NCBI RefSeq assembly: GCF_053078305.1
Contig: NZ_CP166879.1
DNA length: 64,000 bases
Strand: one strand, 5' to 3'
A program made the position numbers. This document shows, piece by piece, positions 51,001-54,000 of the stretch (position 1 is its first letter; the number at the start of each line of letters is the position of its first letter).

Positions 51001-54000
51001 ATATGCAGCCGTAAATTTTTCAGCACAATATCCTCCAGTGGTACAAATAAAAAGTATTGCTGGTCAATATGTTACAGGGATATCACATCTGAAATATCCT
51101 GTCTTCAGTAAAAGATAAACAATCACTATCAATAAAGCGAGTGAAGTCTCTCCCGAAACATTCATTTTTATATTTGGTTTTTTCATGGAGGGGGTTCACC
51201 CAATAACTTACCAATATCCATTATGGTACTTCGTACCTGGACAGCAATATCTGTGAACACGCTATTTGCCCGGTCGTCATGGGACTGAATGTTTGTTCAC
51301 TGATGGAAGGAAAACGCGCGGCACAGATATGAACCCAAACGAATGTAACTCTCTGCAGATATCCTCCTGGCAGAGTTGTTACCTCTTGAGAAATTTACCT
51401 CTGGAGAATGTGTCAATGCCACGATCTTTGACCGTTATAGTGCTGACAAATGAGCGACACCTGTCGTCATAACCAGTGGTCCAGAGTTGAACGTCTGACG
51501 ACAGGAAATGAGTCAGAGCAGTAACCATACGGGTTGACAACGGGACAGTGCCTGGGTCAGTCGGGAGTCATTCCCTGGAGCACTCCTTATATCACCTGCC
51601 ATCAATGCCTGTGTCAGTACTTCAGGGCCTGACGTAAGCTCCTGCCACGATTGCCATCACTATTTTTATGTATTCGATAAGAAATCTTCATCATGCATGA
51701 TCGATTTTGTCGATCGATTCGATCGATTTTTCTCTTTTTACCCTGTCTTTTGCATAGCTTTAGAATAAGCAACCACGTTTATCGTTCGGGGAAAGTGATA
51801 GCGGAGATAACTGAAATGAAAAAGATTATTGCGGTTTCAGCGCTTGCTGTGGTGGGCATGTTTTCAGGCCAGGCCCTGGCTGATAGAGGCAAAACAGGCT
51901 TTTATATGACCGGTAAAGCTGGTGCTTCGGTTGTGACTCAGACTGACCAGCGCTTTCGTCAGGACTTTGGGGACGATGTTTATAAGTATAAGGGCGGCGA
52001 TAAGAACGATACGGTATTCGGTGCCGGCCTTGCGGTGGGCTATGATTTTTATCAGCATTACAATGTTCCTGTGCGCACGGAAGTGGAATTCTATGGCCGC
52101 GGAGCTGCGGACTCCCGTTATACACTGGATACATGGTACTCTCCGATGGTCGGTGGTGGTCGGGAAGACACACAGAACAGGCTCAGTGTGAATACTCTGA
52201 TGGTGAATACGTATTATGACTTCAGAAACAGCAGTGCATTCACCAGCAGTGCATTCACTCCATGGGTGTCTGTTGGACTGGGTTATGCACGGATACATCA
52301 TAAGGCAACATATACTGATACCTCCTGGAATAAATCTGGTGAGGTGAGCAATTTTTCTGCGTTGCATTACCCGGGATATGATAACAATTTTGCATGGAGT
52401 TTTGGGGCAGGTGTCCGCTATGACGTAACCCCGGATATCGCTCTGGACCTCAGCTATCGCTATCTTGATGCAGGTGATGCCAGTGTGAGTTACAAGGATG
52501 AGTGGGGCGATAAATATAAATCAGAAGTTGATGTTAAAAGTCATGACATCATGCTTGGTGTGACTTATAACTTCTGACGAAACTACTCCTGAAAGATAAT
52601 AATTACCTGTCTTCTGTAATTAAACGGAAACTCCCTGCCGTAATTATACTGCAGGGTTGTCTGTTATCTGCTTTACAGGATATTTCTGTTTTTCTTATTA
52701 TTTTATTCTCTTCATAATAATGTTGCCGATATACTCCGATGAATATCAGAAAACTGTTTTGTCCGGACAACACACCACGGATTTTATTGTTTTTATTCTT
52801 TTTTGTTATTTCTGTCATAACCACAATTGCATGCGGATACACTGAGAAGAATGCCACCGGGAATGTGTTGCTGCTGTTCCTTCTTCTGCTCCTTGCACAC
52901 AGAAATACCCTTACATCCATTACAGCTCTGTTATTTCTGTTCTGTTGTGCACTGTATGCGCCTGCGGGTATGACGTACGGTAAAATCAACAACAGTTTTA
53001 TTGTCGCGTTGTTGCAGACCACGGCGGATGAGGCTGCGGAGTTTACCGGGATGATTCCTGTTTATCATTTTCTGGTCAGTGCCGCGATTCTGGTGTTCAT
53101 GGTTATTTTCTGGCGGACACACCACCGCGGTCACCGTAACTGGCTGGCACTGCTGCTGTTCGTATTATGCTCTGTAAACAGCTGGCCGTTGCGGATGGTT
53201 AAAGGAACCGTTGTGGGGACAACTGACACATTGCGTGAAATGCAGCGTTATGAACAACTGAGTCAGCACAGGGCTGACAGCTGGAAAATCCTGCCGGGAG
53301 CACCGTTGTATGACACGATTGTGATTGTCACTGGTGAGAGTGTGCGCAGGGATTATATGTCGGTATATGGTTATCCCGTACCAACCACACCGTGGCTGAA
53401 TACGGCTCCCGGTTTATTTATTGACGGCTATACATCGGCAGCAGCCAGTACCGTACCTTCCCTGAGCCGGACACTGATTTATGACTATGAGCAGAACCCT
53501 GACTCCGGCAACAACGTGGTAGCGCTGGCAGCAAAAGCAGGATACAGCACATGGTGGATATCCAATCAGGGAAAACTGGGGGAGCATGATACACGCATCT
53601 CTGTTATTGCTTCTGATGCGGAGCATACCGTTTTCCTCAAGAAAGGCAGCTTTGCTTCCCGTAAAACGGATGACATGTTGTTGTTACAGGAAACAGAACG
53701 TGCGCTGGCGGATAAATCCTCTCCGAAGGTGATTTTCCTGCACATGATTGGCTCTCATCCGAATCCGTGTGACCGACTTAACTCCTGGCCGAATCATTAC
53801 CTGGAGCAGTATCCCCGAAAGATTGCCTGTTACCTCGCCAGCATCAGTAAACTGGATAACTTTCTCGGTCAGCTTGATGGTATCCTTCGCCGGCATTCCC
53901 GTCATTTCGCCATGCTTTACTTTTCTGACCATGGGCTGTCGGTCAGCGATAGTGCCAATCCTGTTCATCATGATGGTCATGTGCAGGGAGGCTACAGCGT

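Follow-up and report, generated by a model that had tools for sequence, protein, structure and literature searches.

In the upstream activating sequence of the Salmonella std operon, three GATC sites, the targets of Dam methylation, lie within a 25-bp interval at positions -242, -229, and -220 (PMC6735912). The LysR-type regulator HdfR binds this sequence only when it is unmethylated; the binding depends on GATC-2 and GATC-3, which HdfR shields from Dam, and std is expressed in a bistable manner (PMC6735912). The std GATC sites are partly hypomethylated in vivo (PMC9239280). Here we describe a cluster with the same geometry directly upstream of the promoter of tia, which encodes an outer-membrane invasin and adhesin, in a stretch of 64,000 nucleotides (the window) from contig NZ_CP166879.1 of RefSeq assembly GCF_053078305.1. 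Reading toward the gene, both clusters have three GATCs in 25 to 26 bp, with spacings of 13 and then 9 bp. Both also have ATC-N9-GAT dyads and a T-rich tract past GATC-3, and the gene that is under control (at std) or would be (at tia) encodes a surface adhesin on horizontally acquired DNA.

We propose that the tia cluster is a Dam methylation-sensitive operator for a LysR-type regulator from the core genome, either HdfR-like or OxyR-like, and that it would give heterogeneous expression of Tia. From the sequence and from analogy with known switches, we consider the case for this reading to be about evenly balanced. By analogy, HdfR is probably somewhat ahead as the candidate regulator (as at std), with OxyR second (as at agn43, mom, and gtr). 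The relevant features of the window are:

51699-51702, 51712-51715, and 51721-51724 (51699-51724 overall), no strand: the GATC triad, three Dam target sites with start-to-start spacings of 13 and 9 bp
51700-51714, no strand: dyad box 1, ATCGATTTTGTCGAT, an ATC-N9-GAT sequence like the T-N11-A boxes of LysR-type regulators, with GATC-1 and GATC-2 on its two flanks
51713-51727, no strand: dyad box 2, ATCGATTCGATCGAT, which spans GATC-2 and GATC-3
51722-51736, no strand: candidate second (activation) half-site, ATCGATTTTTCTCTT, putatively placed 7 bp past box 1 and abutting the -35 hexamer
51737-51766, plus strand: predicted sigma-70 promoter of tia, with -35 TTTACC (51737-51742), an 18-nt spacer, and -10 TAGAAT (51761-51766)
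51816-52577, plus strand: tia, invasion/adhesion outer-membrane protein of 253 amino acids, 96% identical to proteins named Tia
51674-51684, plus strand: the block (T/A)CGATAAGAAA, which is TCGATAAGAAA in the window; CGATAAGAAA is invariant across the aligned E. coli copies and the preceding base is T or A
51653-51815, plus strand: the tia/hek/hra1 promoter module, about 165 bp, with a GC content of 0.37 (0.47 for the window)

An earlier note on this DNA had pointed to a dense cluster of TCGAT and ATCGAT motifs about 90 to 120 bp upstream of tia. The cluster is real, dyad symmetric, and non-random: three ATCGATs inside 28 bp arose in just 1 of 500 dinucleotide-preserving shuffles. At 51699 to 51727, it lies 89 to 117 bp before the ATG of tia, which we place at 51816 instead of 51817. 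The sequence that was quoted contains ATCGAT at 51700-51705, 51713-51718, and 51722-51727, and on the plus strand TCGAT starts six times between 51674 and 51727 (at 51674, 51701, 51710, 51714, 51719, and 51723). These three copies of ATCGAT are among only 10 in the 64-kb window, for which the shuffles predict 18, evenly spread. Because a G precedes each of the three, GATC starts at 51699, 51712, and 51721. Among the 500 shuffles, 2 contained a triad with exactly this 13/9 spacing, despite about 270 GATCs per shuffle as compared to 98 across the real window (1-64000). Depletion of GATC in genomic islands and prophages has been published and was reported for strain EC958 (PMC4659465); given such a GATC-poor island, the triad is more notable. 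Outside the triad, no pair of GATCs in the window has a spacing of 13 or 9 bp, and the window has no ATCGA-N5-TCGAT dyads besides the two overlapping ones in the cluster (51699-51727). Together, boxes 1 and 2 make a tandem of two TCGATCGAT units, and box 1 is the best-conserved part of the cluster across lineages. A search of 50500-52500 with the Rfam covariance models gave no match at E ≤ 1.

Immediately before the -35 hexamer, the cluster occupies roughly -74 to -46, counted from the transcription start predicted near 51773, and the promoter at 51737-51766 is the sole promoter-like site between tia and the divergent gene subA. Relative to this start, box 1 is centered near -66, box 2 near -53, and the candidate half-site at 51722-51736 near -44. 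The candidate half-site matches the OxyR-type half-site at 5 of 10 positions (7 of 10 in the Salmonella copy described below). Classic LysR-type activators use two sites, one for recognition near -65 and one for activation that adjoins the -35 region. Given the predicted start, the cluster and promoter of tia appear to have this classic layout. Because of the positions of the two putative sites (about -66 and -44) and the precedent of std, we infer that the regulator would activate tia. The -35 and -10 hexamers and the 18-nt spacer are kept in the E. coli variants (with -10 TAAAAT or TAGAAT), and in the window a ribosome-binding site, GGAG, is at 51803-51806. We also considered a 294-amino-acid open reading frame (ORF) that begins within the GATC cluster, at 51693, with an ATG in frame with tia, and adds 41 codons to the gene. 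This is an artefact, as other copies do not conserve the added codons.

The module is widespread: 1,431 of 5,426 complete E. coli genomes (about 26%) contain it, at 82-94% identity, and 462 have a match of at least 99% identity to the canonical hek-type sequence. The type strain of E. coli, ATCC 11775 / DSM 30083, is one of the strains with the module. It precedes genes that are annotated as tia or as "outer membrane protein" (the Tia/Hek/Hra1 family). The surroundings are otherwise unrelated. It is found 3' of papG-II or papG-III, including about 240 bp past papG in islands of extraintestinal pathogenic E. coli (ExPEC); among integrase remnants beside defence genes; in the tia island of enterotoxigenic E. 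coli (ETEC), adjoining leoC; and in O111 STEC (Shiga toxin-producing E. coli). Thus, the module moves with tia, hek, or hra1 into many unrelated islands, and no regulatory gene is linked to it. The lack of a linked regulator implies one that, like HdfR and OxyR, has its gene in the core genome.

A few copies of the module have unusual structures. In E. coli Res13-Sevr-PER06-05-b-A (locus L004, about 2580-2620), the IS66-like element ISCro1 is inserted just after the -35 region (junction TTTTTACCC/GTAAGCG), which leaves the GATC cluster unconnected to a tia gene; this makes two independent IS66-family events at the module. In strain EC9682 and an O111:H8 strain, the module diverges past the promoter (…GAGCTTAAAA…) and a small hypothetical ORF lies between it and the gene for the outer-membrane protein, so in this type the promoter may drive a different first gene.

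To sample the triad without bias, we scanned metagenomes with a pattern that was anchored on the flanks only (TTCGATAAGAAATCTTCATC-N25-55-TTTTACCC) and obtained 59 loci. The canonical triad is present at its canonical length in 55 of them. In one other (L205), the triad is present with a 1-bp change in length downstream of it; another has lost exactly one 9-bp unit and retains two GATCs, 13 bp apart; and two (L163 and L192) belong to a lineage with four GATCs, spaced by 13, 9, and 9 bp. Overall length is the same in 56 of the 59 loci. The four-GATC lineage, of which strain cq9/1303 is an example, is represented in about 29 complete genomes of E. coli, some of them from pigs, cattle, and goats. 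Its GATCs are separated by other bases (GATAT, GCATC), but all of them are kept, and the last one is still 16 bp from the -35 hexamer. The gene downstream of L192 encodes a protein that is 79% identical to the Tia of the window; downstream of L163 we found no intact ORF.

A motif search upstream of tia in other strains was proposed in the earlier note, and absence of the motif there was to count against it. The motif is retained in essentially all of the tia, hek, and hra1 upstream regions that we sampled: the triad is intact in 62 of 64 in-register loci. Across 24 in-register haplotypes, just 2 of 12 positions within the GATCs vary, as compared to 91 of 158 positions elsewhere (P = 0.0065). 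Twelve diverged copies keep GATCGATTT(T/C)(G/A)TCGATC and the downstream GATC, and their flanks vary, including the run of Ts after the cluster.

The strongest sign of conservation comes from outside E. coli. A tia-like gene of Salmonella enterica (locus L126), whose product is 47% identical, is preceded by cacGATCgatttcatcGATCtatacGATCgat, with the arrangement GATC-N9-GATC-N5-GATC. Given the density of GATC, chance alone would produce this arrangement about 0.6 times in a complete E. coli or Salmonella genome. The upstream region is otherwise unalignable with that of E. coli, yet within the 26-bp core 22 positions are identical to the window. The Salmonella promoter has -35 TTTAAC, an 18-nt spacer, and -10 TAAAAT, and the distance from GATC-3 to the -10 hexamer is 39 bp (40 bp in the window). 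More distant homologues of Tia do not have the cluster; these include E. coli copies of 47-58% identity in other islands, beside YadA-like or IS110 genes, and the chromosomal copies of Providencia. Therefore, the cluster belongs to one portable promoter module and not to the protein family. When we scanned a genome collection with GATCGN7CGATCGN3CGATCG, the matches listed were chance matches in high-GC genomes, and none of them was at an enterobacterial locus.

These comparisons bear on what the conserved unit is. In the Salmonella copy, in the four-GATC lineage, and at std itself, several of the ATCGAT hexamers are gone and all of the GATCs are retained. Judging from these sequences, what is conserved is a set of GATCs at fixed spacing and not ATCGAT as such. 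The suggestion that the hexamer palindromes are operator sites for a dimeric regulator thus holds in part: the dyad symmetry of the element and its place shortly before a conserved -35 hexamer are consistent with an operator or activator site, but ATCGAT is not what is preserved.

The earlier note also proposed that the region might couple the expression of the invasin to that of the subAB toxin. The spacer between subA and tia has these parts and neighbours:

49544-49996, minus strand: subB (context, outside the element)
49983-51026, minus strand: subA (context, outside the element)
51236-51640, plus strand: decayed 3' end of an IS66-family element (transposase C-terminus and right end), about 76-79% identical to plasmid IS66-family ends

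The spacer (51027-51815, 789 bp) separates two divergent genes, and the subtilase-encoding pathogenicity island (SE-PAI) of strain ED32 has the same layout, with tia 789 bp from subAB2-1 (PMC3852854). The remnant of the IS66-family element, which has several internal deletions of about 6 to 20 bp each, occupies the middle of the spacer, with about 210 bp of subA-proximal DNA on one side and the tia promoter module on the other. Three pieces therefore meet in the "divergent control region." Of these, the tia-proximal module of about 165 bp alone is conserved outside SE-PAI. The published 789-bp intergenic region is an IS-scarred junction and not an integrated control region for toxin and invasin.

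If the proposed switch operates at tia, the core-genome regulator would bind the triad only when its GATCs are unmethylated. After replication, a LysR-type tetramer would compete with Dam for the triad, and perhaps also with SeqA for hemimethylated DNA. Bound regulator would block Dam, so that the DNA would stay unmethylated and the promoter would be activated, and methylated DNA would shut the regulator out. With both states heritable, a single clone would come to contain Tia-ON as well as Tia-OFF cells.

To compare the candidate regulators, we obtained the std DNA by walking along the Salmonella chromosome from idi (locus L136, from CP074257.1). The std upstream activating sequence reads tacGATCataatcatcGATCgtatcGATCtattttta, with GATCs at 15992, 16005, and 16014 of this locus and stdA at 16231. 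The tia and std clusters are identical at 24 of 34 positions overall. Box 2 of tia (ATCGATTCGATCGAT) matches the GATC-2/3 segment of std (ATCGTATCGATCTAT) at 12 of 15 positions, of which 8 are bases of the GATCs themselves, and no HdfR consensus exists. As for OxyR, the ATC-N9-GAT dyads score 7 to 8 of 10 per half-site against the OxyR-type consensus, and scores of at least 8 occur at 27 of 63,985 background positions. With the full consensus, ATAGnTnnnAnCTAT-N7-ATAGnTnnnAnCTAT, the tia site scores 13 of 20 (32 of 127,928 background windows score 13 or more), the Salmonella tia-like site scores 15, and agn43 scores 14 (or 16 with a spacing of N17). Two features of the std neighbourhood (14297-16230 of the same locus) may be recorded here. 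The region upstream of std (718 bp) is extremely AT-rich, and just upstream of the regulatory region are genes for an Ail/Lom-family outer-membrane protein and a YfdX-family protein, on the same strand.

Several observations weigh against a methylation-sensitive operator at tia. When the GATC columns are compared to the core promoter alone, 2 of 12 versus 31 of 80 positions vary (P = 0.12), so an ordinary protein-binding site may be the reason that the 26-bp core is conserved as a whole. In six E. coli records, which are chromosomes or plasmids, GATC-2 has been lost (CGATCGAT to CTATCTAT; for example, at 1238-1265 of locus L146, from strain EC581), and in an E. coli homologue (66% identity) GATC-3 is missing and the other two GATCs are present. 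In contrast to tia, where the triad abuts the -35 hexamer and no co-regulator is linked, the std triad is about 220 to 240 bp upstream of the gene and requires the co-activator StdF (StdE and StdF are encoded in the operon). Also, GATC-1 is dispensable at std, whereas GATC-1 and GATC-2 are the best-kept pair in the tia family. The OxyR sites differ as well: the spacings are 19/13 at agn43 and 18/13 at Mu mom, not 13/9; the layout of the proven three-GATC OxyR sites, with a lone GATC 18 to 19 bp from a 13-bp pair, is not found at tia; and the full-site score of 13 is below the 14 to 16 of agn43. The promoter of hdfR in E. coli K-12, considered as a possible site of autoregulation by HdfR, has no GATC, no dyad, and no similar motif, and shares just the heptamer TTTGTCG; we regard this comparison as uninformative. 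The transcription start of tia is a prediction. Finally, in a literature search with little coverage of subscription journals, we found no published account of how tia, hek, or hra1 is regulated, either by Dam, HdfR, or OxyR or otherwise, and none of the motif; nor did we find, in the published methylome studies that we consulted, a list of unmethylated GATCs that covers the tia locus. Separately, the EC581-type allele gains CTAT, which is an OxyR-type half-site ending, and from its sequence it could be a "methylation-blind" locked variant.

What else might account for the cluster? It might be an ordinary operator, in which a dimeric or tetrameric regulator reads the ATCGA-N5-TCGAT dyads; the GATCs would then simply come with the recognition sequence, and regulation would not involve Dam. 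The conservation of the entire 26-bp core between the window and Salmonella, and not of the GATCs alone, would fit this, as would the lack of a significant difference between the GATC columns and the rest of the core promoter; furthermore, the variants that have lost one GATC retain a dyad-like CTAT or GATA. However, ATCGAT is lost while the GATCs and their spacing persist in the Salmonella copy, the four-GATC lineage, and std, and the sole experimentally studied site with the exact 13/9 geometry is controlled by methylation (PMC6735912). We therefore consider an ordinary operator to be rather unlikely. We think it improbable that the cluster is instead a nucleation site for H-NS, at which TCGAT-containing, AT-rich motifs would seed the silencing of horizontally acquired tia. 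The published H-NS motif, tCGATAAATT, does begin with TCGAT (PMC2094087), and both it and the cluster belong to AT-rich, horizontally acquired DNA, with the module at a GC content well below that of the window. The block at 51674 (TCGATAAGAA) scores 7 of 10 against this motif and the Salmonella copy (TCGATAAAAA) scores 8 of 10, so the (T/A)CGATAAGAAA block is a possible H-NS-type motif or a possible further contact for the regulator. But the TCGATs of the triad (which are followed by TTTTG, CGATT, and TTTTT) score 5 to 7 of 10 and do not have the central T-A step, which is the most conserved feature of the motif (PMC2094087), and nucleation by H-NS leaves the exact spacing of the GATCs across diverged sequences unexplained. 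Silencing by H-NS could coexist with the proposed switch.

The other explanations are less probable still. A Rho-independent terminator or insulator might protect tia from read-through from upstream pap operons or insertion sequences: a terminator scan found an 8-bp stem, GTCGATCGAT-TCG-ATCGAT, followed by TTTTCTCTTT, with a folding energy of -10 kcal/mol, and the ExPEC islands place the module close behind papG. This fold is no better than that of shuffled sequences (z = -1.4), the predicted structure differs among the variants, the T-run is missing from the A31/ECONIH6 type, the four-GATC type, and the Salmonella copy, and the genes upstream of the module differ or lie on the other strand, so we give a terminator very little weight. 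We are just as doubtful that the cluster is a simple-sequence contingency locus, at which the 9-bp unit TCGATCGAT would be gained or lost by strand slippage, altering the geometry of the promoter and switching tia. Variants in copy number do exist (a metagenomic locus with one unit fewer and a lineage with one more), but there are just two tandem units, and length hardly varies in the unbiased sample. Moreover, the extra unit of the four-GATC lineage has diverged, which argues for an old duplication instead of recurrent slippage, and since the last GATC stays equally far from the -35 hexamer in every variant, the spacing of the promoter does not shift. Least probable of all is a shared divergent control region, in which one regulator would coordinate subAB and tia. 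The two genes are indeed divergent and just 789 bp apart. Nevertheless, the module is found in 1,431 of the complete E. coli genomes and the whole spacer in 19, so that the cluster is about 75 times more common without subAB than with it; the IS66-family remnant, which makes up the middle 400 bp, intervenes; the cluster is about 670 bp from subA; and a scan of the window found no second copy of the motif near subA. The proposed coupling of toxin and invasin is not borne out, and for the subAB island the outcome is negative: there is no evident link between the cluster and the toxin genes.

Returning to the methylation-sensitive operator, a stronger version of it would make the triad a portable epigenetic switch cassette. 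Here, the module of about 165 bp would draw on the host's Dam and HdfR to give bistable expression of an adhesin or invasin in roughly one E. coli strain in four, and alleles with two, three, or four GATCs would set different switching rates. The cassette would move between E. coli and Salmonella islands with tia, hek, or hra1, and possibly with a gene for a phosphoethanolamine transferase as well. We regard this version as tentative and more doubtful than the operator itself.

The putative transferase gene lies 3' of tia in the window (52739-54241) and encodes a protein of 500 amino acids that matches the Pfam family Sulfatase and, weakly, CptA/EptA. Similar genes trail tia-family genes in several unrelated islands (L128, L131, L141, L143, and L144), and some islands have both genes without the GATC cluster. 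Between tia and this gene, the window contains no terminator-like site and has a promoter-like site at 52672-52701. The two genes may be a surface-remodelling pair.

Tia, Hek, and Hra1 are adhesins, invasins, and autoaggregation factors of ETEC, of STEC that are negative for the locus of enterocyte effacement, and of neonatal-meningitis, uropathogenic, and enteroaggregative E. coli. If the proposed switch is correct, then only some of the cells would express these proteins, which would affect how assays of adhesion and invasion are read, the choice of vaccine antigens, and virulence typing by the presence of the gene. The natural alleles with two, three, or four GATCs are a ready-made series for testing it.

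Among the known switches, some features of tia resemble those of systems other than std. At agn43 (flu), as at tia, three GATCs lie within a LysR-type binding site and the gene encodes an autoaggregating outer-membrane adhesin. The 20 bp from GATC-1 to GATC-2 of tia are identical at 17 positions to those from GATC-II to GATC-III of agn43, which are an OxyR half-site. The agn43 site is downstream of the transcription start, and OxyR represses there. Mu mom and the gtr and opvAB loci of Salmonella, all of which are controlled by OxyR and Dam, also have 13-bp GATC pairs that flank an ATC-N9-GAT half-site. At gtr and opvAB, surface structures undergo phase variation through alternative occupancy of the sites; the two 13-bp pairs of gtr are separate, some 50 bp from each other, and none of mom, gtr, and opvAB has a 13/9 triad. 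The pap switch, which is Dam dependent and has heritable ON and OFF states, likewise controls an adhesin, and the tia/hek module is often beside pap operons. Unlike tia, it relies on two GATC boxes 102 bp apart, on Lrp, and on a PapI-like protein. Because pap operons adjoin hek, we also considered oligomers of PapB-family proteins, which bind sites with a period of 9 bp, as possible ligands of the cluster. If our reading is correct, then tia and its relatives would add a new E. coli locus to the epigenetic switches controlled by Dam (pap, agn43, sci1, gtr, opvAB, and std). If, in addition, the cassette with HdfR is real, then the HdfR/Dam mechanism, so far described for Salmonella std alone, would extend to a widespread virulence factor of E. 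coli. The closest match is still std: the triad at tia would be the first site beyond it with the 13/9 signature of GATCs, and it is found in about 26% of complete E. coli genomes.

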